A DNA stretch of 63,859 nt, filler included, from a bacterium (GTDB lineage: Bacteria > UBP15 > UBA6099 > JAJRTR01): assembly GCA_024278215.1 (NCBI GenBank). It is 5 parts of 5 records of this genome, joined end to end, with 100 filler letters (N's around TTAATTAATTAA, not from the genome) between each part and the next. Parts side by side here need not be neighbours in the genome. Positions count along the whole stretch, not along the records: positions 1 to 25,025 come from JAJRTR010000178.1; 4 more parts are not named here. The stretch is one strand, 5' to 3'. How positions within the stretch are numbered: position 1 is the stretch's first letter; every line of letters begins with the position of its first letter. The position numbers and the translations under genes are program-made. Positions 1,285 through 59,981 of this stretch are shown one piece after another. The notes beneath the pieces were generated by a model. It ran no database searches and had not been told where the DNA came from. It worked only from the letters and a program-made list of their open reading frames with translations.

Positions 1285-1556
1285 TATTCGATTCAGCCGG
1301 TATGCTCCGCGGCAGAGCGCCGTAACGATGAAAATCACAGCCCGGTTACATATAATCGTACCATTTTTCGAGGCATATAAAAAGTGCTCCATGCAGTTTG
1401 TGATTCCGGAGATTGCGATTGACGTAGAGCCGATAACAAAATTGTGTTATAGTGAAGACATTCACAACGGCGGCCCCGATTCGAGACGGTTGGAATATGC
1501 CTGTGTTGGTATGGCCACAGAGATATATAACCCTGAAAGGACGGTGAAGAATATCT

Positions 1557-2378
1557 ATGATTAGAAAACAACATATTTTCGTATTGATTCTTGTAATATT
1601 TCAGGTGGCGTTTTTTCAGCCCGATCTCGCCGCCGCCCGGCCTCTTGAGATCACGGCCCACCGCGGGATGAAGAAATTCGCACCGGAAAATACGATACCG
1701 GCTATCAGGAAAGCAATCGACATGGGACTCGATTATGTGGAGTTCGACATCCGCGAGACTTCGGACGGCGTAATGGTGCTCATGCACGATTCAACTGTCG
1801 ACGCCACAACGGATGGAACCGGTCCGGTCGCCGGGTTCACCCTCGATGAGATGAAAAAACTGGATGCCGGCGTTAAGTTTTCTGAAGAGTTCAAGGGAAC
1901 ACGGGTCCCGACACTCGAGGAAGCCCTGCTGATCATGAAAGGCCACATAAAGGGGTATCTCGATTTCAAGGTCGGCTCACTTGAGAAACTCGTCGCGATA
2001 GTCTAAAAATGCGGCATGGTCGATTCCGTTGTCCTGTACGGCGACATAGGCGAAGCCGTTCGGATGGAAAAACTCAACCCGAATATCATTGTGATGCCCC
2101 ATGTGGAGAATGCGCAGCAGATAAAATTGTTTCTGACGACTGTCAAATTGAAAGCGGTCGAAACTTCGATTCTCGTCGCATCCACAAAGAAACTCGTGGA
2201 TGAAGCGCACAAGCACGGAATAAAGGTCTTTATGGATATTCTCGGCCCGTTCGATAATAAGACCGGTTTAAGGAAAGCGCTGAAGATGAAAGTGGACGTG
2301 ATTCAAACGGACAATGCGGATGTAATGCTCGAACTGCTCGAAAAGAGAAAATCCGCAAAACGGAAATCCGCCGAATAG
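1557..2378 (+). pseudogene. Glycerophosphodiester phosphodiesterase (GDPD), secreted, interrupted by an in-frame TAA at 2004-2006
   Basis: Signal peptide, AHRG, PENT, VEFDI, MHD motifs in 1557-2006; ORF 2016-2378 is in the same frame and supplies the rest of the barrel (VDVIQTD). Confidence 0.8.
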
Positions 2379-2489: not shown

Positions 2490-2518
2490 AAAAAAAAAGC
2501 CACCTGCTTCTGGTGGCT
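2490..2518 (-). terminator. Intrinsic terminator, minus strand
   Basis: Minus strand AGCCACC-AGAAGCA-GGTGGC followed by a T9 run (A9 at 2490-2498 on the plus strand). Confidence 0.8.
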
Positions 2519-2565
2519 CTTATCAGGAGGAGTTGCTGTGGCTAACAGCAACCATGTCAATCATT
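2490..2565 (-). ncRNA. Candidate sigma28-dependent small RNA (~75 nt)
   Basis: Lies between a perfect sigma28 promoter and an intrinsic terminator; 8-bp hairpin GUUGCUGU/ACAGCAAC then single-stranded UCCUCCUGAUAAG. Confidence 0.6.
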
Positions 2566-2570
2566 AATAA

Positions 2571-2598
2571 TTATCGGCCATCCTGCGTTAAACTTTAG
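2571..2598 (-). promoter_or_regulatory. Sigma28 (FliA/SigD) promoter
   Basis: Minus strand CTAAAGTTT-aacgcaggatg-GCCGATAA = TAAA-N15-GCCGATAA, exact consensus including the extended GTTT. Confidence 0.8.
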
Positions 2599-13047: not shown

Positions 13048-13311
13048 GATATTTCTTATTCTGTTTTTTGCCGTCCCGCGCCGCCGATGCGAATTACGCC
13101 GCATACGGCTCTGTAAAGGCTCTCGTGCCCGAAAAAAGATGGAACATATCCGGAATATGTCTGTCTCAAAATTATTAAGGTCTGTAAATGCCTGATTTAT
13201 GTCGAATATGGATTTTTGCGGGAACTGTTGTAAGAATTCAATGTTATGTTCCGGACGGCGCGTATTGAATGTAAACACATGCGTACGTCGCCCGTGAAAG
13301 GGGAGCGACCA

Positions 13312-14307
13312 ATGGAAGGATCACAGGATATCAGGGAACTCAACGAGATAATAAACCGCGAGAGCGCGTTTGTCGAGAGCATCATGGCGGAGGTGGGCAA
13401 ACGGCTTGTCGGCCAGAAGCAGATGATAGAGCGACTGCTCATCGGGCTGCTGGGCAACGGTCATGTGCTGCTCGAGGGCGTGCCGGGACTTGCCAAGACT
13501 ATGACTGTCAGCACGCTGGCGGATGTGATCGACACGAAGTTCCAGCGCATACAGTTCACTCCCGACCTGTTGCCGGCCGACCTGCTGGGCACACTTATAT
13601 TCAGTCAGAAGACCGGTGAGTTCACCACGAAGAAGGGGCCGATCTTCTCGAACCTGATACTGGCCGACGAGATAAACCGCGCGCCGGCAAAAGTGCAGAG
13701 TGCGCTGCTCGAGGCGATGCAGGATCGGCAGATCACTATCGGCGACGAGACGTTCCCGCTGGACGATCCTTTCCTTGTGCTCGCCACGCAGAATCCCATC
13801 GAGCAGGAAGGCACCTACCCGCTTCCAGAGGCCCAGGTGGACCGCTTCATGCTCAAGATACTCATCAGCTACCCCAGCCGCCGCGAAGAGGTGGACATCA
13901 TGCGGCGCATGGCGCGCGGCAGACCGGCGGAGGTCGCGAAGGTCGTCACTCCGGCGGACATAATCCGCGCTCGCGGCCTCGTCGAGCAGGTCTATATGGA
14001 CGAAAAGGTCGAAAACTATATCATCGACATAGTTATGGCCACGCGGAACCCGGAGGAATATAAACTGGAGGGGCTGGCGGACATGATCGAGTACGGCGCT
14101 TCGCCGCGCGCTTCCATCAATCTCGCGCGGGCCGCCCGCGCTCACGCCTTCCTGCGCCGCCGCGGGTTCGTGACGCCCGAAGATGTTCGCTCTATATGCC
14201 CGGATGTGATGCGCCACCGCGTCATCGTCAGCTACGAGGCCGAAGCGGAAGACATGACTTCGGACGAAGTCATCAAAAAGATACTGGACAGAATCGAAGT
14301 GCCATGA
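13312..14307 (+). CDS. moxR: MoxR-family AAA+ ATPase
   Basis: GVPGLAKT Walker A, RIQFTPDLLPAD, LADEINRA, ATQNPIE, EAQVDRF, GASPR. Confidence 0.95.
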   Translation: MEGSQDIRELNEIINRESAFVESIMAEVGKRLVGQKQMIERLLIGLLGNGHVLLEGVPGLAKTMTVSTLADVIDTKFQRIQFTPDLLPADLLGTLIFSQKTGEFTTKKGPIFSNLILADEINRAPAKVQSALLEAMQDRQITIGDETFPLDDPFLVLATQNPIEQEGTYPLPEAQVDRFMLKILISYPSRREEVDIMRRMARGRPAEVAKVVTPADIIRARGLVEQVYMDEKVENYIIDIVMATRNPEEYKLEGLADMIEYGASPRASINLARAARAHAFLRRRGFVTPEDVRSICPDVMRHRVIVSYEAEAEDMTSDEVIKKILDRIEVP

Positions 14308-15179
14308 TATCGACGGAACTGCTGAAAAAAGTCAGGCGCATCGAGATATACACCAGGAACCTCGTCAACAGTGTGTTCTCGGGTGAGTATCACAGTGTGT
14401 TCAAGGGGCGCGGCATCGAGTTCGCCGAAGTCCGCGAATACACTATCGGCGACGACATACGCACCATCGACTGGAATGTCACCGCGCGCACGGGCGAACC
14501 GCACATAAAGATATTCAACGAGGAACGCGAGTTGACGATCATGCTGCTTGTGGATGTCAGCGGTTCTGGGCATTTCGGCACCGTAAGCCAGTACAAAAAC
14601 GAAATCGCAGCCGAGTTGTGCGCGGTGCTGGCTTTCTCGGCCATAAAAAACAACGACCGCGTCGGGCTCGTGATGTTCACCGATAATATCGAGAAATATA
14701 TTCCTCCTAAAAAAGGACGCAAGCATGTGCTTCGTGTCATCCGTGAGATTCTCTCTTTCAAGCCGACCGCGACAGAGACGGACATAAACTGCGCCCTCGA
14801 GTTCATAAGTAAGGTCGTTAAGCGCAAATGCGTCGCGTTTCTCATGTCCGATTACATGTCGGGCGAATATGAGAAAGCCCTCAAAGTTGCTCATAAGAAA
14901 CACGATTTGATAGCGATAACACTTACCGACCCACGCGAATTGACTATGCCGAATATCGGTATCGTGAACCTCGAAGACGCGGAAACGGGCGAGCGGATTC
15001 TCGTGGACACTTCCAGCGCGCGTGTCCGCAGAGAGTTCGAGGAGCGCGCGGCACGGCGCATCAGCAGCCGCGACCGGCTTTTCCGCAAGATCGACCTGGA
15101 CTCGATCCCGGTGACGACCGACAAGTCATATATCGACCCGCTCGTGCGTTTCTTCCGTGCGCGCGCTAATAAGTTCTGA
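14304..15179 (+). CDS. DUF58 (vWA-like) MoxR partner
   Basis: GRGIEFAEVREY.GDDIRTIDWNVTAR and DVSGS; ATGA overlap with moxR. Confidence 0.92.
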   Translation: MISTELLKKVRRIEIYTRNLVNSVFSGEYHSVFKGRGIEFAEVREYTIGDDIRTIDWNVTARTGEPHIKIFNEERELTIMLLVDVSGSGHFGTVSQYKNEIAAELCAVLAFSAIKNNDRVGLVMFTDNIEKYIPPKKGRKHVLRVIREILSFKPTATETDINCALEFISKVVKRKCVAFLMSDYMSGEYEKALKVAHKKHDLIAITLTDPRELTMPNIGIVNLEDAETGERILVDTSSARVRREFEERAARRISSRDRLFRKIDLDSIPVTTDKSYIDPLVRFFRARANKF

Positions 15180-15203
15180 GCGATGGTTCGCAGAGGTGAA
15201 TGG

Positions 15204-16226
15204 ATGAAACATAACAACAGGATAACGCAAAGAATACACGGTGTTGCAGCAGCAGCGATAATCGTCTTTCTCTCGCTCGCTTTCTCCGGCTGCGCGGGCG
15301 GCGCGAAAAAGAACACCGAGCCATGGCTAAAAGATTATGCCGCCGAACTGATCGACAAGGGCCTGTACAAGGAAGCGGTCGATGCTTATAAGGATTTCCT
15401 GCGCACGCCGGACCTCGATCCGAAAATCAGGGCCAACGTCTATTACATGCTCGGCGATGTGTACCGCGAGCAACTCTTTGATTACAAAAGCGCGATGGCG
15501 AGTTACATGAAGGTGAAATACATTGATCCGGACACCGAACTGGGAGATAAAATAGATAAAAAAATCATCGAATGCCTCGAAAAGATGGGCCGCTCGACAG
15601 ATGCGAAACGCGAACTTGACAGAATAATCTCCAACAAGCCGCATGACACAGGCGACGAGAATATCGTGGCGCAGGTCGGCGGCAGAAAGATAACGGGCAA
15701 AGAACTCGACGGCATGATCTCACGCAGCTACATGGACCCGGATAAGATGACTGTCCGCGAAAAGGCGCAGTTCCTTCAGAGCAGAATCGCAAACGAACTC
15801 ATGGCCAATGCCGCCGAAAGGAAAGGCTACGGCAAGGATCAGGACACGCTTCTGCGCCTCGAGGACTTCAGGCGTACCCTGCTCGCCCAGAAGATTTTCA
15901 AGGAGGAGATCGGCGCGAAGGTCAGTGTCGACCCGGAAAAAGTCAGGCTCTATTACGAAGCCAACAAAGACGATTTTAAAGACGAGGACGGCAACCCGAA
16001 ACGGTTCGAGGATGTGCGCCGTGAGATTTACTCGAAACTCTACATGCAGCAGCAGCAGGAGGCGGCTCAGGATTACATACAAAGGCTCCTCAAGGCGGAG
16101 AGTGTGGACATTTATATGGAGAACATCAAAGGCGCGCCGGAACACGCGACCGGTGCCGGGGCATCCGTCGGGGAGCCCCCGCCCGGCCTCGATCAGCACA
16201 GCCTGCCTCCGGGCGGAAGCGACTGA
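15204..16226 (+). CDS. Lipoprotein with TPR plus SurA/PrsA-like chaperone domain
   Basis: Lipobox FSGC, TPR helices, then VAQVGGRKIT...KLYYEANK...FEDVRREI typical of foldases; no complete parvulin domain recognised. Confidence 0.6.
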   Translation: MKHNNRITQRIHGVAAAAIIVFLSLAFSGCAGGAKKNTEPWLKDYAAELIDKGLYKEAVDAYKDFLRTPDLDPKIRANVYYMLGDVYREQLFDYKSAMASYMKVKYIDPDTELGDKIDKKIIECLEKMGRSTDAKRELDRIISNKPHDTGDENIVAQVGGRKITGKELDGMISRSYMDPDKMTVREKAQFLQSRIANELMANAAERKGYGKDQDTLLRLEDFRRTLLAQKIFKEEIGAKVSVDPEKVRLYYEANKDDFKDEDGNPKRFEDVRREIYSKLYMQQQQEAAQDYIQRLLKAESVDIYMENIKGAPEHATGAGASVGEPPPGLDQHSLPPGGSD

Positions 16227-16278
16227 TAATATCCGGACAAAGCCGCCGCGCCACCGTTCCTGCGGGGATAACAATCGA

Positions 16279-17274
16279 ATGAGCTATATGATGATCAGAT
16301 TATCTGCAAAAACACACATTGTTCGAACAGCCGCGTTGCTGTTGCTGCTGCTGTTCGCTTCTTCACTTGCGTTCGCGCAGGCGGGACAAAAGCCTGTCAC
16401 ACTCAACGCCGAGGTCGACAAAGACACGATAACAATCGGTGATCCCATAACCTATACGATCTCAGTGGTTTACGGAAACGGCTACCATATCGAGCTGATG
16501 AATCCAGGAACGAATCTTGGCGAATTTGAGATTCGCGACTTCCACAAAGAGGGGCCGGTCAAACTCGATGACGGCCGCCTCAAGATCGTTAATGTTTATG
16601 TCATCTCGGTCTACGACACGGGCGAATTCACTATTCCGCCCTTTTCTATCGCCTACTGGAAACGCGAAGACGAAAAAGATACGCTCGCGACTAAAGAGAT
16701 AAAGATACATGTCAAAAGCATCCGCAGCGAAGACGCAAAAGACATACAGGATATAAAAGACCCGATAGCGGTGAAGCCGTCGTTTACAAAATATATCGTT
16801 GCCGGAGCCGCCGGATTCATTCTTTTCGCGGGGCTTATCGCGGCACTGATCGTGCTGGTCAGGCGGCGAAGACGGCTGAAAGCGGAGGGCCCGCCGCCGC
16901 CGAGAAAAGTTGTCCCGCCGCATATCATCGCCGTTCGCGAACTCGACGGGATCGAGGCGCTGGACCTGCCCTCGCAGGGCAGAATAAAGGAATATTATAT
17001 CGCGGTCTCGGAAGTGATACGGAAATATATCTATGGCCGCTACGGGGTCGTTACGATGGAGCGGACGACGGACGAGATCATGAGCGATCTTCTGAACCGA
17101 AATGTCAACCGGGAACACAGCGATCCCATCGGCGGGCTGCTCCGCGACGCCGATATGGTCAAATTCGCGAAATACAGGCCCGGTCGCGAGATGTGCGCCG
17201 ACGATATGAAACGCGCCCGAACGATTATAGAAATCACAAAGGAGACGCAGGCACCCGATGCAATTCGCGTATAA
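16279..17274 (+). CDS. Bat-operon membrane protein (BatD-like N-terminus, TM helix, helical C-terminus)
   Basis: Signal peptide, VDKDTITIGDPI, IQDIKDP, TM, YY..VSEVIRKY, ERTTDEI, ADMVKFAKY. Confidence 0.8.
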   Translation: MSYMMIRLSAKTHIVRTAALLLLLLFASSLAFAQAGQKPVTLNAEVDKDTITIGDPITYTISVVYGNGYHIELMNPGTNLGEFEIRDFHKEGPVKLDDGRLKIVNVYVISVYDTGEFTIPPFSIAYWKREDEKDTLATKEIKIHVKSIRSEDAKDIQDIKDPIAVKPSFTKYIVAGAAGFILFAGLIAALIVLVRRRRRLKAEGPPPPRKVVPPHIIAVRELDGIEALDLPSQGRIKEYYIAVSEVIRKYIYGRYGVVTMERTTDEIMSDLLNRNVNREHSDPIGGLLRDADMVKFAKYRPGREMCADDMKRARTIIEITKETQAPDAIRV

Positions 17275-18268
17275 AATACTGCTCGCGCTCCTGGCGCTTC
17301 TGCCTCTGCTTGCGCTCCTTTACAGGTGGCGCGAGCGGCGCAGGGGCACGCTCGTGTTCAGCGACATCAGTGTGTTCAAAGACATCCCCGCGACGGGCGC
17401 GGTGCGCCACAGGCACATATTGATCGTTCTGCGCCTGCTGGCGGTCGCCGCGCTGATTGTTGCTTTCGCGCGGCCGCAATCGACATCCAAAACAGAGAAG
17501 ATATACACCGAAGGCATCGACATCATCCTCGCGCTCGACGCCAGCGGCAGTATGAAGGCCGAGGACTTCCGTCCCAAAAACAGGTTCCAGGCGGCAAAAG
17601 ACGTGATCTCCGATTTCATCGGGCATACGAACAACAACCGGCTCGGCCTCGTCGTCTATGCCTCGAACGCTTACACGCAGTGCCCGCTTACGCTCGACTA
17701 CAGCGTGCTGCTCAACATACTCGACCGCACCACACTCGACATGCTCGACGGCAAAAGCACCGCTATCGGCATGGCTATCGCAACGTCGGTCAACCGCCTG
17801 AAAAAATCGAAAGCGAAAAGCAAGGTGATCATCCTGCTCACCGACGGGCGCAACAACAAGGGCGAGATCGACCCGATAACGGCGGCGCGTATCGCGGCGA
17901 CATTCGGCATAAAAATCTACACGATCGGTATGGGGAAGGAAGGCGGAGCGCCCATGTATGTCGATCATCCGGTGCTGGGGCGCATCGTCGCGCGCGATGC
18001 CAACGGCGAGATAATGATGTACGAAGAGCCGGACGAGGACACACTTGTCGAGATCGCCCGCATTACCGGCGGCCGCTATTTCCGCGCGACGGACGAGAAA
18101 AAACTGACACGTATTTATGAAGATATTGCGTCGATGGAAAAATCGAAAATAAAGACGGAACAGAAAATAAATTATACGGAATATTTCCAGTATCCGCTGC
18201 TGGCGGCCCTGCTGCTGCTGGCATTGGAGCTTGTGCTGGGAATGACAAGGTTCAGGACGCTGCCATGA
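17258..18268 (+). CDS. batA: BatA vWA-domain membrane protein
   Basis: ARPQ, MIDAS DASGSM, PLTLD, TAIG, LLTDG, TGGRYF. Confidence 0.9.
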   Translation: MQFAYKILLALLALLPLLALLYRWRERRRGTLVFSDISVFKDIPATGAVRHRHILIVLRLLAVAALIVAFARPQSTSKTEKIYTEGIDIILALDASGSMKAEDFRPKNRFQAAKDVISDFIGHTNNNRLGLVVYASNAYTQCPLTLDYSVLLNILDRTTLDMLDGKSTAIGMAIATSVNRLKKSKAKSKVIILLTDGRNNKGEIDPITAARIAATFGIKIYTIGMGKEGGAPMYVDHPVLGRIVARDANGEIMMYEEPDEDTLVEIARITGGRYFRATDEKKLTRIYEDIASMEKSKIKTEQKINYTEYFQYPLLAALLLLALELVLGMTRFRTLP

Positions 18269-19320
18269 TAAAGTTCGCAAGCCCGGAGATGCTGTACCTG
18301 CTGGCGTTGCTGCCCGCCGCCGCTGTGCTGGTGTGGCTGAGTTTCAGGCGCAGGCGGCGCGACCTTGCGGCGTTCGGCGACATGCGCCTCGTCGAAAAAC
18401 TCGCCGCGTCCGCCGCACCCGGCAAGCAGGTGACGAAATCAGTGCTGTTCCTGCTCGCTATGGCAGCCTTTATCATTGCGGCGGCGCGTCCGCAGGTCGG
18501 CACTAAGATGGAACTCGTCAAAAGAAAAGGTATCGACATCGTTATCGCAATCGACACTTCGGCAAGTATGAACGCCGAAGACGCGATGGGCAAATCAAAG
18601 GGCCGCCGCATCGAAAAAGCCGTCCACGAGATAGACGCGATGCTCGATATCCTCGACAACGACCGGGTCGGTCTCGTCGCTTTCGCGGGCTCCGCACACA
18701 TCCACTGTCCTCTCACACTCGACTACGATGCCGTTCGCATTTTCCTTAATGTCATTGACACGAACCTTGTGCCGACACCCGGCACCAACCTCGGCGCTGC
18801 GATCACAAAATCCATATCGATGTTCGATAAGCACGAAAAGAAATTCAAAGCCCTTATCCTTATAACCGACGGCGAAGGCTTTGCCGGAAAACCACTTGAT
18901 GTCGCAGAAAAAGCAGCGAAAGAAGGCGTGCGCATCTTCCCCATCGGCATCGGCTCGCCTCAGGGAACACCTATCCCGGTCTACGATGAAAACGGCGAGA
19001 AAATCGGCCTGAAAAAGGATAAAGACGGCAATCTCGTCCTGTCGAAACTCGACGAGGTTACGCTCGAGAAGATAGCGCTCAAAACCGGCGGGCGCTACTT
19101 CCCTGCTTCGCTGGGCGAGATCGAACTCAAGAAGATACACTCGGAAATATCCAGTATGGAAAAGAAGGAACTCGCCACCCGCAAGTACACACATTTCGAG
19201 GACAGGTTCCAGTGGCTCATCGGACTCGGTCTGTTGCTTCTGCTACTCGAATCTCTTATCACTACACGCAGCAGCGGCAACGGTGGTCAAAGGAGGTTTG
19301 CAGATGAAAAAGAAGCCTGA
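18265..19320 (+). CDS. batB: BatB vWA-domain membrane protein
   Basis: ARPQVG, DTSASM, PLTLD, ITDGE, IGIGS..G..IP, C-terminal RFQW. Confidence 0.9.
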   Translation: MIKFASPEMLYLLALLPAAAVLVWLSFRRRRRDLAAFGDMRLVEKLAASAAPGKQVTKSVLFLLAMAAFIIAAARPQVGTKMELVKRKGIDIVIAIDTSASMNAEDAMGKSKGRRIEKAVHEIDAMLDILDNDRVGLVAFAGSAHIHCPLTLDYDAVRIFLNVIDTNLVPTPGTNLGAAITKSISMFDKHEKKFKALILITDGEGFAGKPLDVAEKAAKEGVRIFPIGIGSPQGTPIPVYDENGEKIGLKKDKDGNLVLSKLDEVTLEKIALKTGGRYFPASLGEIELKKIHSEISSMEKKELATRKYTHFEDRFQWLIGLGLLLLLLESLITTRSSGNGGQRRFADEKEA

Positions 19321-20196
19321 GACTTTCAAGATATTTGTCCTCGCCGCGCTGGCGCTGTGCGCTTTCGTTTTCACATCGGGCTGCAACCGCCTGCGCGACG
19401 ACTACTGGTATCACATAAAGAAAGGCAACTCGGAATATGCTTCCGGCGACTATGATTCGGCTCTCAAACAATACCACGACGCGGAACTTCTCAAACCCGA
19501 GTCCGCTGTGATCAGCCACAACATGGGCAACGTGTTCTACAAGCAGAAAAACATGGAGAAAGCTGTCGAGAAGTACAGGGCCGCGCTGTCTTCGTCCGAC
19601 CGCCGCATCGTCGCCGATGCCCACTACAACATCGGTAACGCTTACTACAGGCAGGATAAACTCGACGAGGCTATCCTCGAATACAAACAGGCACTCGAGA
19701 TAAATTCCAAAGACGTCGAAGCGAAATTCAACCTCGAACTCGCACGCGCTAAACTGAAAGAAAAGCTACAGAAACAGGAGGAAGAACAAAAAAAGCAGCA
19801 GCAAAAAAAGACCCGCTCGAAAAGAATAAGCTGCCCGACGATAAGAAGGACCAGAACAAGAAATGCAACAACCCGAAACAGGGACAGGGACAGAAGCAAC
19901 AGGCACAGAAAAAGCCGGCGCAGAAAAAAACCGGCGAAAAGGGCGAAGGAGCGGACAAAAAGAAAAAAGACGCTGAAAAGAAAAAAGCGGCAGCACAGCC
20001 TGAGCCGGGCAAAGATAAGAAAAAAGATGATAAGAAAAAAGGTGCCGCCGCAGGCGAAAAGAAAAAAAACGGCGAGATGTCCAAAGACGAAGCCAACAGG
20101 ATTCTCCAGGCGCTGGACAGCCGCGAGAAAAAGGACCGCGAGAAGATGACCGTCCCCTATCCGATGGGCGACTATCGACCTGAAAAGGACTGGTGA
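19304..20196 (+). CDS. batC: BatC TPR lipoprotein, split by a -1 frameshift in the Q/K-rich linker (~19790-19810)
   Basis: TPRs (HNMGN, YNIGN, AKFNLELA); the -1 frame after the A7 run at 19803-19809 gives DPLEKNK...MSKDEANRILQALD...PEKDW* (stop 20194-20196), the typical BatC ending. Confidence 0.8.
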
Positions 20197-20237
20197 GGAC
20201 AGGCACACAACTTTTAAATATAATAAAGCGGAAGTTT

Positions 20238-22025
20238 ATGAAAAACAGGATCAAAACAATATATATACTCGCCGCGTTTCTTACTATAGTGCTGCCGGCC
20301 GGTTGCGCTGTCGCGCGTGCGGACAACCTGCAATTCACCGCAAGCGTCAACCGAAACCGAATCGGGATAAACGAAACCCTGCAATATGTGCTGAGTGTCG
20401 AGGGTGCGGCCAGGCTGAACCAGTTGCCCCAGCCGCCCGACTTCAAAAACTTCGATATCGTCGGCACATCAAGGTCGAGCAACATGCAGATAATAAACGG
20501 CCGCGTATCGTCATCCTTCAATCTCATCTTTCAACTCGTGCCGAAGAACGTCGGCAAATTCACTATCGGACAGGCATCTTTCACCTACGGCGGCAAGACC
20601 TATAAGAGCAACAGGGTTGAAGTCGAAGTAATCCAGGGTCAGAAAAAACCCCGGCAGCAGGCCCCGCACAGGATGTCGAGAACTCTCGACCCTTACGAAC
20701 GGGACCAGGGCATCAAGGACAACATATTTTTTAAAACTACCGTCGACAAAACCAAAGCCGTGATAAATGAGCCTATCACTTTGACTTTCGGCTTCTACTC
20801 CCGGATAAATGTGTCGTCGGCGTCACTCGAGAAGATGCCGACTCTCAGCGGTTTCTGGAAGGAGGAACTCGAAGATTCCAAAAATGACCGCGAGGTCATC
20901 GTCGACGGTCGCCGCTACGGTGTCACCGAATGGAAATGGGTTGTCTTCCCCACAACCACGGGAAAATTCATTATCGACGAGGCAAAGGTAAAGGTGCAGA
21001 CCAGCCCCTTCCAGTCGCCTTACTTAATCAAGTCGAACCCGATAACAATCACAGTCGGCGATTTCCCCGACGAGGGCCGCCCGGATAACTTCAACGGCGC
21101 TGTCGGCGACTTCAAAATGAAAACAAAACTAGCCGCCGGGCAGGTTAAAGTCAACGAACCGGTGAACCTCACCGTGCGCATTTCCGGCAGGGGCAACGTC
21201 AACTCGATCCCCGATCTCGACATAAATCTGCCGCCCGACATCGACGTATACGAATCAAAAAGCACATCGAACACTTTCCATGAAAAGAATTATGTGCACG
21301 GCGAAAGGATATTCGAATATGCCCTGCTCCCGCGCGCGCCGGGCGACTATGAACTACCCGACATACGTTTTTCTTTCTACAACTATCGAACGAAAAAATA
21401 TGAAACCGTTTCCTCCGGGCCGTTGAAACTGAAGGTGTCGGGCATAGCCGCTATGCCCGAAGCTGTTCATGTGGACAAAGGCACGGTGCGCGTCCTGAAG
21501 CGGGAGATCAACCACATCAAGCCCGCGCCCGAAGGCGAACTCGACAGCGGCGGCTTTCTTTACAAAAATAAATTCTACTGGCTGCTTCACCTCCTTCCCC
21601 TGCTCGTTCTCGTCGCGGCCGCAGCGACAAAACACCGAAAAGAAAGTTTCAAAAAAGATGTCGCTCGCGCTCGCGCCACACGCGCTAAAGGTATCGCAGG
21701 TAAACTACTTCGCAAAGCGGCGAAACTGTTGAAAACTGAAACACAAAAGGAATTCTTTGCCGAGCTGTCGGCTGCTTTATATGAATATTTCGCCGACAAA
21801 CTCAATGTCTCCTCAAGCTCGCTCGTGATTGACGATATCGTGTCGATACTCGAGGAAAAACTCGGCGACGGAGCCCCGGCGGATAAGATACGCGAATGCC
21901 TGACCACCTGCGACACAGCCCGTTTCTCGACATTCAACGTGTCGCGCGAAGAAATGAAAAACGCATACTCGCAGGCCGCCGGAATCATAAATACTGTCGA
22001 AAGGCTATGGAAACGTGCCGGTTAA
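20238..22025 (+). CDS. batD: BatD protein
   Basis: Signal peptide, IINGR.SS, FNGAVGDF, ISGRGN, C-terminal TM plus helical domain. Confidence 0.88.
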   Translation: MKNRIKTIYILAAFLTIVLPAGCAVARADNLQFTASVNRNRIGINETLQYVLSVEGAARLNQLPQPPDFKNFDIVGTSRSSNMQIINGRVSSSFNLIFQLVPKNVGKFTIGQASFTYGGKTYKSNRVEVEVIQGQKKPRQQAPHRMSRTLDPYERDQGIKDNIFFKTTVDKTKAVINEPITLTFGFYSRINVSSASLEKMPTLSGFWKEELEDSKNDREVIVDGRRYGVTEWKWVVFPTTTGKFIIDEAKVKVQTSPFQSPYLIKSNPITITVGDFPDEGRPDNFNGAVGDFKMKTKLAAGQVKVNEPVNLTVRISGRGNVNSIPDLDINLPPDIDVYESKSTSNTFHEKNYVHGERIFEYALLPRAPGDYELPDIRFSFYNYRTKKYETVSSGPLKLKVSGIAAMPEAVHVDKGTVRVLKREINHIKPAPEGELDSGGFLYKNKFYWLLHLLPLLVLVAAAATKHRKESFKKDVARARATRAKGIAGKLLRKAAKLLKTETQKEFFAELSAALYEYFADKLNVSSSSLVIDDIVSILEEKLGDGAPADKIRECLTTCDTARFSTFNVSREEMKNAYSQAAGIINTVERLWKRAG

Positions 22026-22833
22026 GAAATACATACTCTTATTGATTTTCGTGATGGTTGCCGGCTCGACTGTCGGCACGTCGGCGCTTGAATTCGCCAC
22101 GGAACAGCAAAAATTGCCGGACAACCCAAAAGCGGTTTTCGCGCTTGCGGGCAAAGCATACGAAGCGGATAACTATGACGCGGCAGTGCAACTCTACGAA
22201 TCTATCGTCCGCCGCGGAATCCGCAGCGGAGTCGTTTATTACAACCTCGGTAACGCATACTTCCGTGCGGGCAATCTGGGCCGCGCCATCCTCAACTACC
22301 GGCGCGCGCAACTGCTGATGCCCCGCGACATCGAACTCCAGGAGAACATCGATTACGCTCGCACTCTCGCTATCGACGAGGCGAAAAAGACTATCGTCCC
22401 CACCTATCATGGCCGTTTTATCGAGAACGCCAAACGCTTCAGCCCCAACGAAATAACGATATGCGCATCGTCGTTATTTGTTTTTTCGATAATACTATTC
22501 TGCATCGCGATCTTCACGGACGCACCGGGCCTGAAGAAATTCCTCCGGCGCACTGGCGCGATCGCACTACTGCTTTCAATAACAGCCGGCGCCACACTAG
22601 GATATATTGTTTATGAAAACAAGCAGGCGCCGCACGCGATCATCACAGCCGAGCGCGTCGAAGTCCGCGCCGGGCCGGGAAACGAATTCACCACAGTCTT
22701 CGTGCTTCACGCAGGCGCGGAAGTCGTCGTGCGGCGCGAGCGCAACGGCTGGCTCAAAATCGAGTTCCCTTCCGTCGGCCACGGCTGGCTCCCTCGCAAC
22801 GAACTCGACAAAATACAGCTAAATAGTGGCTGA
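22015..22833 (+). CDS. batE: BatE (TPR plus SH3b) protein
   Basis: YYNLGNAY, GRAILNYRRA, two TMs, VRAGPG...LHAG..V...GWL. Confidence 0.88.
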   Translation: MPVKKYILLLIFVMVAGSTVGTSALEFATEQQKLPDNPKAVFALAGKAYEADNYDAAVQLYESIVRRGIRSGVVYYNLGNAYFRAGNLGRAILNYRRAQLLMPRDIELQENIDYARTLAIDEAKKTIVPTYHGRFIENAKRFSPNEITICASSLFVFSIILFCIAIFTDAPGLKKFLRRTGAIALLLSITAGATLGYIVYENKQAPHAIITAERVEVRAGPGNEFTTVFVLHAGAEVVVRRERNGWLKIEFPSVGHGWLPRNELDKIQLNSG

Positions 22834-25025: not shown

Positions 25026-25125
25026 NNNNNNNNNNNNNNNNNNNNNNNNNNNNNNNNNNNNNNNNNNNNTTAATTAATTAANNNNNNNNNNNNNNNNNNN
25101 NNNNNNNNNNNNNNNNNNNNNNNNN
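25026..25125. other. Artificial contig linker
   Basis: N44-TTAATTAATTAA-N44 six-frame-stop spacer. Confidence 0.97.
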
Positions 25126-39275: not shown

Positions 39276-39375
39276 NNNNNNNNNNNNNNNNNNNNNNNNN
39301 NNNNNNNNNNNNNNNNNNNTTAATTAATTAANNNNNNNNNNNNNNNNNNNNNNNNNNNNNNNNNNNNNNNNNNNN
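39276..39375. other. Artificial contig linker
   Basis: N-TTAATTAATTAA-N spacer. Confidence 0.97.
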
Positions 39376-43262: not shown

Positions 43263-43333
43263 TATTAGATAAATCATTACGGCAACAAAACTTTGAATAA
43301 TAGCTGTCGACAGTGACTGTTATGGTGTTCCCT

Positions 43334-44467
43334 ATGGCTGAGCCTCTGAAGAAAATAAGAGTAATGGTAGTCGAATACTCTGCATACATGCGTTATGTAA
43401 TATCCGAGATACTGAACTCCGATCCTGAAATAGAAGTAGTGGAAAAAGCCCGCGATGGTGTGGATGCCCTCGAAAGGCTGAAAAAAGATGTGCCGGACGT
43501 CATCACGCTCGATATACAGATGCCGCGAATGGATGGACTGACTTTCCTCGCTGAATTGAGAAAGAATTATCGTATCCCGACAATAATGATCAGCAGTCTC
43601 ACGCGCGAGGGCGCCGAAGATACATTCAAGGCGCTGGACCTCGGCGCTGTGGATTTTGTGCCTAAACCGTCTGGAATGCTGTCGCTCACCCTCGAAGACA
43701 TCCAGGAGCAACTGATAGAAAAAGTAAAAGCGGCATCCGTTATCAAACCGATGGTGACATTCGGAACAGGCCTGGGAACACGAGTTAAAGAAAGAGCGGA
43801 ACACTCGGAACATGTTGCGGAGCGGCAACCGAACAGCAGGCGCGAAACCGTAATAGAACCGTTGCGGGTGAAGAGAACACCGCTTCCCCAAAAAGTGCCT
43901 GTACTTCATCGTATCGTCGCCATCGGCAGCTCCACCGGCGGCCCGCGCGCACTTACGGAGATTATACCTCTGCTGCCCGGCGACCTGTCTGCCTGCGTTG
44001 TTGTTGTCCAGCACATGCCGCCGCGTTTCACCACGGCGCTCGCGGAACGCCTCAACTCGATTTCCGAAGTCGATGTGATCGAAGCTTCGAACGGAGACAG
44101 GTTGAAACCGGGTGTTGTGTACATCGCTCCCGGAGACTTCCACATACACGTCGGCAAAGGCGATACGATCTATCTCACACAGGAAGCTCCTGTAAACGGG
44201 GTCAGACCCTCTATCGACATTCTCATGAAATCCGTAGCTGCAACATACAGGCGCAAAAGCATCGGCGTGATCCTTACAGGCATGGGCTCCGACGGCAAAG
44301 AAGGCGTGAAAATGATAAGTGGTGAAGGCGGAACGGTATTCGCCGAGCATGAAACTACATGTGTTGTATACGGCATGCCCAGGGTCGCCGTCGAAACAGG
44401 CTGCGTCGACCGTGTGCTTATTCTTCCACGCATCGCAGACGAACTCATCCAGCTGATTGAAAACTGA
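43334..44467 (+). CDS. cheB: Chemotaxis response regulator/methylesterase
   Basis: Receiver (TLDIQMP..DG, FVPKP) plus methylesterase (GSSTGGP, QHMP, LTGMGSDG, YGMP). Confidence 0.93.
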   Translation: MAEPLKKIRVMVVEYSAYMRYVISEILNSDPEIEVVEKARDGVDALERLKKDVPDVITLDIQMPRMDGLTFLAELRKNYRIPTIMISSLTREGAEDTFKALDLGAVDFVPKPSGMLSLTLEDIQEQLIEKVKAASVIKPMVTFGTGLGTRVKERAEHSEHVAERQPNSRRETVIEPLRVKRTPLPQKVPVLHRIVAIGSSTGGPRALTEIIPLLPGDLSACVVVVQHMPPRFTTALAERLNSISEVDVIEASNGDRLKPGVVYIAPGDFHIHVGKGDTIYLTQEAPVNGVRPSIDILMKSVAATYRRKSIGVILTGMGSDGKEGVKMISGEGGTVFAEHETTCVVYGMPRVAVETGCVDRVLILPRIADELIQLIEN

Positions 44468-52021: not shown

Positions 52022-52121
52022 NNNNNNNNNNNNNNNNNNNNNNNNNNNNNNNNNNNNNNNNNNNNTTAATTAATTAANNNNNNNNNNNNNNNNNNNNNNN
52101 NNNNNNNNNNNNNNNNNNNNN
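52022..52121. other. Artificial contig linker
   Basis: N-TTAATTAATTAA-N spacer. Confidence 0.97.
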
Positions 52122-59881: not shown

Positions 59882-59981
59882 NNNNNNNNNNNNNNNNNNN
59901 NNNNNNNNNNNNNNNNNNNNNNNNNTTAATTAATTAANNNNNNNNNNNNNNNNNNNNNNNNNNNNNNNNNNNNNNNNNNNN
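59882..59981. other. Artificial contig linker
   Basis: N-TTAATTAATTAA-N spacer. Confidence 0.97.

Follow-up and report, generated by a model that had tools for sequence, protein, structure and literature searches.

The 63,859-nucleotide (nt) stretch of DNA analyzed here (hereafter the window; assembly GCA_024278215.1, from a bacterium of the phylum UBP15) carries on its minus strand, at 2598–2490, a short promoter-to-terminator unit that is very probably a genuine member of a family of small RNA (sRNA) genes with a promoter of the sigma-28 (FliA/SigD) type. What is new here is that the invariant blocks of the RNA are complementary, in silico, to the leader of one flagellin gene of related genomes, the flagellin encoded downstream of fliW-csrA. 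On balance, we favor a reading of the whole in which a sigma-28-type sRNA gene acts by base pairing on the mRNA of this csrA-linked flagellin.

The promoter consists of a −35-like element, CTAAAG (2598–2593, minus strand), and a −10-like element, GCCGATAA (2578–2571, minus strand), which contains CCGATA. The 15-nt spacer from CTAAAG to CCGATA gives the geometry TAAA-N15-GCCGATAA, alternatively written CTAAAGTTT-N11-GCCGATAA, and the strict pattern TAAA-N15-GCCGATA has a single occurrence on the two strands of the window. When scored with a two-block matrix derived from 22 homologous promoters of the RNA family, the window promoter reaches 26.5 bits, and the runner-up site in the whole window reaches 12.1 bits. 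An earlier note, made by reading the window sequence, had claimed a perfect FliA/SigD promoter on the minus strand with no substantial gene behind it, and both parts of that claim hold: the match is exact and unique in the window, and the next gene, which encodes a glycerophosphodiester phosphodiesterase (GDPD; 2016–2378), is on the opposite strand. The unit lies in a 550-nt gap that opens with the end of this GDPD gene at 2378 and closes at 2930 with the start of an esterase gene; as both flanking genes are on the plus strand, the minus-strand promoter has no gene of its own behind it.

Relatives of the window organism were located by means of its 908-amino-acid molybdopterin oxidoreductase, for which the best match was found in genome G001 (74%). 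The neighboring esterase, taken as a synteny anchor, had no relative among the searched genome contigs. A 151-nt region has one match in genome G002 (E 4e-25; 84% identity along 108 nt), matches at two sites in genome G003, and no match in G001, which belongs to another phylum than G003. When the phylum of G003 was searched with a 73-nt query, the RNA was found in 12 of 12 genomes as 23 copies (one to three per genome, 85–94% identity), and the same query and threshold gave none in the 401 genomes of the phylum of G001. A pattern scan of metagenomes, in which both arms of the first hairpin were left free, returned at least 118 matching stretches, with activated-sludge and digester assemblies among their sources; 10 of the 80 loci fetched are true copies, all with the same core, and 71 of the pattern matches are due to chance. 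The PyrD protein of the window is 66% identical to that of G008, 65% to that of G010, 55% to that of G002, and 53% to that of G001, values that make the window organism either a rather remote member of the G003 group or a neighbor to it. A literature search of limited coverage found no publication on this RNA, and the phylum name UBP15 gave ubiquitin-protease papers only.

The copies stand in unrelated flanking sequences with diverse neighbors (a PHP-domain protein, GH4, EamA, GlmS, and others). In 17 of 22 loci the gene upstream points away from the unit, and the downstream gene is found on either strand; with unrelated neighbors and no fixed downstream orientation, the unit is therefore not the leader of a fixed gene. 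The same observations bear on the idea that a promoter-like string has by chance come to stand before a terminator belonging to a neighboring gene. The terminator could indeed also serve the convergent GDPD gene, the stop codon of which is ~110 nt away, but its U-tract is on the minus strand only, and the whole unit is kept in all 12 genomes in unrelated contexts. A chance combination is refuted by the conservation of the family, including the metagenome copies and the invariant core, and we give it practically no weight.

From the promoter geometry and the terminator, a transcript of ~75 nt is predicted (2564–2490, minus strand). Its start is placed 7–8 nt past the −10 element, the distance found at sigma-28 promoters, and its end at the U-tract. 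Sequence conservation among relatives sets in near this predicted start, and the gap between the end of the −10 hexamer and GACAUGG is 8–13 nt across copies. Close to the predicted 5′ end lies the block UGACAUGGUU (2559–2550, minus strand), which can pair with AACCAUGUCA, around the start codon of the csrA-adjacent flagellin mRNA of relatives, and of which the first 7 nt are single-stranded in the fold of the free RNA. Hairpin 1, GGUUGCUGU-UAGCC-ACAGCAACU (2553–2531, minus strand), begins ~18 nt after the −10 element and has 9 pairs, one of them G-U. It is followed by a CU-rich, anti-Shine-Dalgarno tract, CUCCUCCU (2532–2525, minus strand), which a short linker separates from the intrinsic terminator, AAGAGCCACC-AGAAGCA-GGUGGCUUUU plus U-tract (2521–2490, minus strand; stem 2521–2495). 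The terminator has 10 pairs (5 of them G-C) and a 7-nt loop, and 9 U residues run down to 2490. The fold of 2488–2570 has an energy of −27.2 kcal/mol (z = −3.4), a stability equaled by 1 of 200 shuffles.

In the minimum-energy fold, CCUCCU of CUCCUCCU is unpaired, in agreement with the proposal of the earlier note that a CU tract is exposed between two hairpins. The terminator described there is likewise present as a stem plus U-tract, but the stem comprises 8–10 base pairs, not 7, and relatives do not keep the UGAUAAG that the note read behind the CU tract. No Rfam family reaches its gathering threshold, the best for the window RNA being Phe_leader (23.3 bits versus a gathering score of 55), and five loci of relatives have no match. 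With its own promoter, a Rho-independent terminator, an intergenic position, and no coding function, the unit has the features by which an independent gene for a trans-acting sRNA is recognized.

Sequence conservation within the unit is extreme. Among 21 distinct sequences, UGACAUGGUUGCUG-YY-AGCCACAGCAACUCCUCCU is identical except at two positions of the loop and for a G-to-U change that a single copy carries, and this invariance covers 35 nt of RNA plus the terminator stem. The 5′ block UGACAUGGUU is identical in 20 of the 21 distinct copies (the exception, locus L108, has the G-to-U change), and the CU tract is identical in all 21. In hairpin 1, which has the stem GUUGCUG/CAGCAAC and AGCCA in the loop, variation is limited to the 2 loop positions. 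The terminator stem, GAGCCACC/GGUGGCU, is nearly fixed; the linker, the terminator loop, and all sequence outside the unit vary freely among copies. The earlier note had made its proposal depend on conservation of promoter, seed, and terminator in relatives, and this is what the 12 genomes, with the promoter in 22 of 24 copies, display.

A 10-codon open reading frame (ORF) with its ATG at 2555 lies inside the unit, and a tiny coding gene (10 codons, MVA[V/A]SHSNSS), or else a leader or attenuator of a downstream gene, has to be considered. An ATG-to-stop frame of 10–11 codons is present in 15 of 24 copies, the next downstream ORF is co-oriented in 15 of 23 loci at a distance of 100–355 nt, and there is the weak resemblance to Phe_leader, which comes mostly from the terminator. 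However, no Shine-Dalgarno sequence precedes the ATG, and relatives do not keep the frame: 8 of 24 copies have no stop, so that the frame passes the terminator, and 1 more has no ATG. There are zero synonymous changes among copies, and the downstream genes are mutually unrelated; in the window, as in 8 of 23 loci, the downstream gene is oriented against the unit. Lacking a Shine-Dalgarno sequence, constant stops, synonymous change, and related neighbors, the peptide or leader reading was rejected, and we regard it as very improbable.

The sigma-28-type promoter connects the RNA gene with flagellar genes. In the 22 copies that keep it, the consensus is CTAAAG (or TTAAG)-N15/16-(C/A/T)CGATA, mostly with a T- or A-run upstream. 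The spacer is 15 nt in 11 and 16 nt in 6 of the 17 copies caught by the stricter of two family patterns, and 15 nt in 15 and 16 nt in 7 of the 22 once the 5 copies with variant motifs are added. When the family-derived matrix was applied to flagellin upstream regions of relatives, 20 of 31 scored at least 16 bits on the sense strand, and 19 of these 20 sites are located at −82 to −109 relative to the start codon. As controls, the antisense strand of the same regions gave sites in 0 of 31, and not one of 1952 pieces drawn at random from the window reached 12 bits. Because the same matrix matches 20 of 31 flagellins, the RNA and the late flagellar genes of this heavily flagellated, fliA-bearing phylum have a common promoter type. 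Flagellin_N is present in 12 of 12 genomes (G002–G013), with 9–22 matches each, many of them in tandem arrays, and this flagellin repertoire is unusually large. FliW is found in 12 of 12 genomes; in the five genomes searched for them, CsrA is found in 5, Hfq in 3, and FlgM in 2. FliA/WhiG (TIGR02479) scores above the curated cut-off in 10 of 12 genomes, with one further match cut by a contig end, and the sigma-28 gene that the earlier note presupposed is to that extent present in relatives of the window organism.

To look for candidate targets, pairing with the RNA was scored for 171 gene starts, taken from loci not picked by complementarity. One class stood out, the flagellin downstream of fliW-csrA with the N-terminus MS(L/I/V)TR..., of which the leaders (7 distinct) hold ranks 1–6 of the 171. 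After subtraction of the unfolding cost, the dimer energies for 13 leaders are −13.5 to −25.1 kcal/mol with a mean of −19.9. The corresponding mean is −8.9 for other flagellins (n = 27, best −15.5), −6.7 for fliW starts (n = 11, best −15.3), and −4.5 for non-flagellar gene starts (n = 126), none of which reaches −13.5. Dinucleotide-shuffled versions of the RNA never attain the real energy (0 of 60 with each of 8 leaders; z = −3.5 to −7.2). The window's own copy of the RNA gives −20.1 with the leader of G008 and −23.4 with that of G010. These energies lead us to lean toward the csrA-linked flagellin as the predicted main target of the RNA.

The leader of this flagellin contains two invariant islands, whereas the remainder of its 300 nt diverges. 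A hairpin, UUCUGGUGGCUCCAG, which lies ~45 nt upstream in the leader, makes up the first island. All 12 genomes have the 13-nt core of this hairpin, each of them a single time apart from G007, in which the cluster is duplicated and the core occurs twice, and in 12 of 13 cases the hairpin is found 0.5–0.9 kilobases downstream of fliW on the same strand. The 5-nt loop is UGGCU in 10 of 10, and the base of the stem shows compensating differences. The second island is the conserved initiation region itself, AAGGAGGAG-N3-AA(C/U)CAUGUCA. The same dimer architecture is predicted for 13 of 13 leaders: UGACAUGGUU pairs with AACCAUGUCA, AUG included, CUCCUCCU pairs with the Shine-Dalgarno sequence AGGAGGAG, and a 4-base-pair remnant of hairpin 1 stands between both helices. 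In G006, the target variant AAUCAUGUCA has a C-to-U change opposite a G of the RNA, such that a G-U pair is retained, and the partner sites are invariant or wobble-compatible in all 13 leaders; in silico, a conserved seed thus meets a conserved target site. A search for GGAG-N4-10-ACCATGTCA found 20 distinct sites in the 12 genomes versus 1 for the reversed control. Twelve of the sites are the target gene and 2 are paralogues of the same class in G005; the remaining 6 are probably due to chance. The target flagellin has no sigma-28-type site of at least 10 bits within 700 nt upstream at any of the 13 loci. The guess of the earlier note that flagellin-class mRNAs are targeted therefore survives in silico in a narrower form, with one specific flagellin as the candidate and with its start codon and leader hairpin contacted as well, but the ribosome-binding-site partner that was proposed, UAUCAGGAGGA, gives way to AGGAGGAG.

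A third block of complementarity involves the first island. The 5′ arm of the terminator together with the start of its loop, GAGCCACC(AGAA), is complementary to UUCUGGUGGCUC of the leader hairpin; in 27 cognate pairings, 8–16 contiguous Watson-Crick or G-U pairs are possible, at least 11 of them in 18 of the 27. In addition, AGCCA in the loop of hairpin 1 is complementary at every position to the leader loop UGGCU. Some 100 nt ahead of the start, the target leader (loci L342–L353 and L357) also keeps an element rich in G, GGGGGAGGGAGGUG...ACGGCUACCC, and it has a hairpin with GGA in its loop, and these look like CsrA sites or further structure.

Several observations weigh against the reading that we favor. 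None of 14 predicted pairs covaries over the 21 distinct sequences. Covariation is absent because the stems never vary, and the case for RNA structure is therefore one of thermodynamics and invariance only. Copies L102 (G005:C5) and L108 (G006:C221) are without a sigma-28-type promoter and may be decaying or differently regulated; in L108, the G-to-U change in the 5′ block would also weaken pairing with the target. In G008, the closest relative, there is no FliA match (TIGR02479), possibly owing to an incomplete assembly, and we infer the fliA, flagellin, and target genes of the window organism from relatives with 55–66% PyrD identity. Extended complements of the seed are not enriched: there are 22 exact non-self matches to an 11-mer versus 38 for controls, and 33 non-perfect matches to 14-mers (at most one mismatch) versus 49. 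The target was recognized after inspection of several flagellar leaders and is a post hoc find, and the strong Shine-Dalgarno sequences and frequent ATG TCA starts of flagellar genes raise pairing scores generally. Conservation of the initiation region could have other causes, for example binding of CsrA to this very site. In the group of G003, G011, G012, and G013, the third block is no longer than 8–9 nt, and its use requires opening of the terminator.

An alternative, the broader reading of the earlier note, is a general anti-Shine-Dalgarno regulator, the free CUCCUCCU tract of which binds many strong ribosome-binding sites, those of flagellins and fliW among them, with no target preferred; the invariant hairpin would then serve for stability or for a chaperone. 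Other flagellins (mean −8.9) and fliW (best −15.3) do outscore other genes (mean −4.5), Hfq is encoded by three of the five genomes searched, and with a 27-nt probe the fliW site gives −27.7 in G010, −22.4 in G007, and −23.7 in G009. This alternative leaves unexplained, however, why UGACAUGGUU and GAGCCACC, which match one leader only, are invariant. Moreover, relatives do not all keep the complementarity to fliW (−14.2 in the G003 group), and the lack of genome-wide enrichment of extended seed complements counts against broad action as well. We consider a general regulator unlikely and, returning to the csrA-linked flagellin as predicted main target, allow that weaker pairing with the ribosome-binding sites of other flagellins and of fliW is possible.

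Two other candidate targets were rejected. The ribosome-binding site and GUG start of fliW are partly complementary to the RNA at loci L341 (G010, GGAGGAGUGCUGUG), L332 and L340 (G007), and L333 (G009), but fliW as main target fails on conservation, the fliW starts of the G003/G011/G012/G013 group having no such complementarity. In locus L085 (G002:C166, ~1500–1519, minus strand), a perfect 17-nt complement of the RNA is situated between tandem flagellin genes, ~350 nt before the next start. No other non-self 14-mer match in these 12 genomes is perfect, and this one is a single, unconserved case.

A protein-binding function, in which the RNA is a decoy or cofactor for a flagellar regulator or RNA chaperone and the complementarity to the leader is incidental or a form of mimicry, would account for stems that never vary over 21 distinct sequences, as is typical of sequence-specific recognition. 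AGCCAC moreover occurs twice, in the loop of hairpin 1 and in the terminator arm. Yet no candidate protein is linked to the gene among its neighbors, and base pairing explains the 5′ block, the CU tract, the GAGCCACC arm, and the AGCCA loop, although not the GCUG/CAGC stem or the 3′ arm of the terminator. A CsrA sponge of the known kind is contradicted by the transcript itself: GGA, the motif of CsrA (abstract of PMC4894983), does not occur anywhere in it, so this is not a CsrA-sequestering sRNA of the CsrB/RsmZ kind. Taken as a whole, we judge a protein-binding role to be quite improbable.

For an sRNA that pairs with the csrA-linked flagellin mRNA, we infer the following course, from transcription and the position of the 5′ end to pairing in the cell and the sign of regulation. 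Sigma-28 would transcribe the RNA late in flagellar assembly, and the RNA would base-pair with the mRNA of the flagellin paralogue encoded downstream of fliW-csrA. Its 5′ end, UGACAUGGUU, would cover the start codon and its CUCCUCCU tract the Shine-Dalgarno sequence of the target, with a shortened hairpin 1 persisting between both helices as a three-way junction. GAGCCACC with the start of the terminator loop, the AGCCA loop, or both may contact the invariant leader hairpin. Translation initiation of the target would be blocked once sigma-28 is active, and flagellin output would move toward the sigma-28-dependent paralogues; the RNA thus probably tunes the choice of flagellin that is made. The Shine-Dalgarno sequence to which CUCCUCCU is predicted to pair sits in a leader that looks CsrA-bound, and the RNA and CsrA may therefore compete.

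An extension of this proposal, which we put forward tentatively and regard as rather doubtful, is that the RNA is one arm of a phylum-wide flagellin-class switch set atop CsrA-FliW. It would act as a three-site clamp that displaces both CsrA and the ribosome, moving the cell from an early, hook-proximal flagellin to the sigma-28-dependent paralogues. In such a switch, a 5-base-pair loop-loop kiss (AGCCA/UGGCU) would come first, and strand exchange between the terminator and the leader hairpin would follow, spreading over the Shine-Dalgarno sequence and the AUG.

Several known flagellar RNAs offer comparisons. In Campylobacter, CjNC1 and CjNC4 are described as stand-alone, paralogous, sigma-28-dependent RNAs; flagellar genes that depend on sigma-54, flaB among them, are their predicted targets, with pairing across the ribosome-binding sites, and their regulation in reporters was independent of Hfq (PMC4626219). 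A related Campylobacter RNA, the FliA-dependent CJnc170/FlmR, reduces filament length (PMC11187230). The window RNA resembles CjNC1/CjNC4 in being specified by a short, stand-alone, multi-copy gene in which a sigma-28 promoter precedes a conserved pairing region and a terminator hairpin, and in its predicted pairing over ribosome-binding sites of flagellar genes that are not sigma-28-dependent, the minor flagellin FlaB being the Campylobacter example. It differs in belonging to another phylum, in a predicted pairing of three blocks that includes the start codon, and in having one csrA-adjacent flagellin as predicted main target.

FlaX of Vibrio cholerae represses the secondary flagellin flaB through three conserved sites in the leader, one of them the ribosome-binding site, and thereby governs how the filament is composed and how flagellar gene classes are ordered; it is a FliA-independent, 265-nt fragment of a 3′ untranslated region (PMC11879080). 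The predicted three-site pairing within the leader of one flagellin is similar here, whereas our RNA is ~70 nt long, multi-copy, and provided with its own sigma-28-type promoter. CjNC1/CjNC4 and FlaX are the closest analogues. In Escherichia coli, UhpU, MotR, FliX, and FlgO are sigma-28-dependent RNAs that act post-transcriptionally on flagellin level and flagellar number; they derive from untranslated regions and bind Hfq, and MotR and FliX pair inside the coding sequences of ribosomal proteins (PMC10578931). The window RNA has a flagellar-sigma-type promoter like theirs but is not homologous to them. We conclude that this is a new RNA family that resembles known flagellar sRNAs in its predicted mode of action and appears to have no sequence in common with them, as judged by the absent Rfam match rather than by a direct comparison.

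A partner switch of CsrA, FliW, and flagellin governs hag of Bacillus subtilis. Such a switch is also reported for flaA of Campylobacter (PMC4894983). The predicted target shares features of such loci: the gene order is fliW-csrA-flagellin, and its leader, like flagellin leaders bound by CsrA, has a GGA-loop hairpin and a GGA-containing Shine-Dalgarno sequence. The switch is protein-based, however, and a sigma-28-dependent RNA acting on the same Shine-Dalgarno sequence is no part of it as described.

Almost nothing is known of RNA regulators in uncultured phyla, and here a family has been defined from sequence with its promoter class, ends, copy number, distribution, and a concrete predicted target; it could enter RNA family libraries and help to annotate these genomes. 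If the target is correct, Campylobacter, Vibrio (with another sigma factor), and this phylum would each have evolved independently a scheme in which a late flagellar sigma factor drives an sRNA that silences a flagellin belonging to a different class. Filaments built from several flagellins would then seem to have a general way of putting the paralogues in order.

Elsewhere in the window, the GDPD-family gene next to the unit (1557–2378, plus strand) has an in-frame TAA at 2004–2006, and its two halves share a frame; possible explanations are a pseudogene, an error in the assembly, or a pair of ORFs. The cheB gene mentioned in the earlier note is indeed present (43304–44464, plus strand; Response_reg and CheB_methylest, E 2.9e-65). 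It adjoins pyrD/pyrK-like genes, with no visible che operon around it. Paired runs of 44 N residues, 12 bases apart, occupy positions 25026–25125, 39276–39375, 52022–52121, and 59882–59981. Finally, genes for a MoxR AAA ATPase and for DUF58, BatA/VWA, TPR, and BatD-like proteins form a cluster of the Bat/aerotolerance type at ~13246–22833 on the plus strand.

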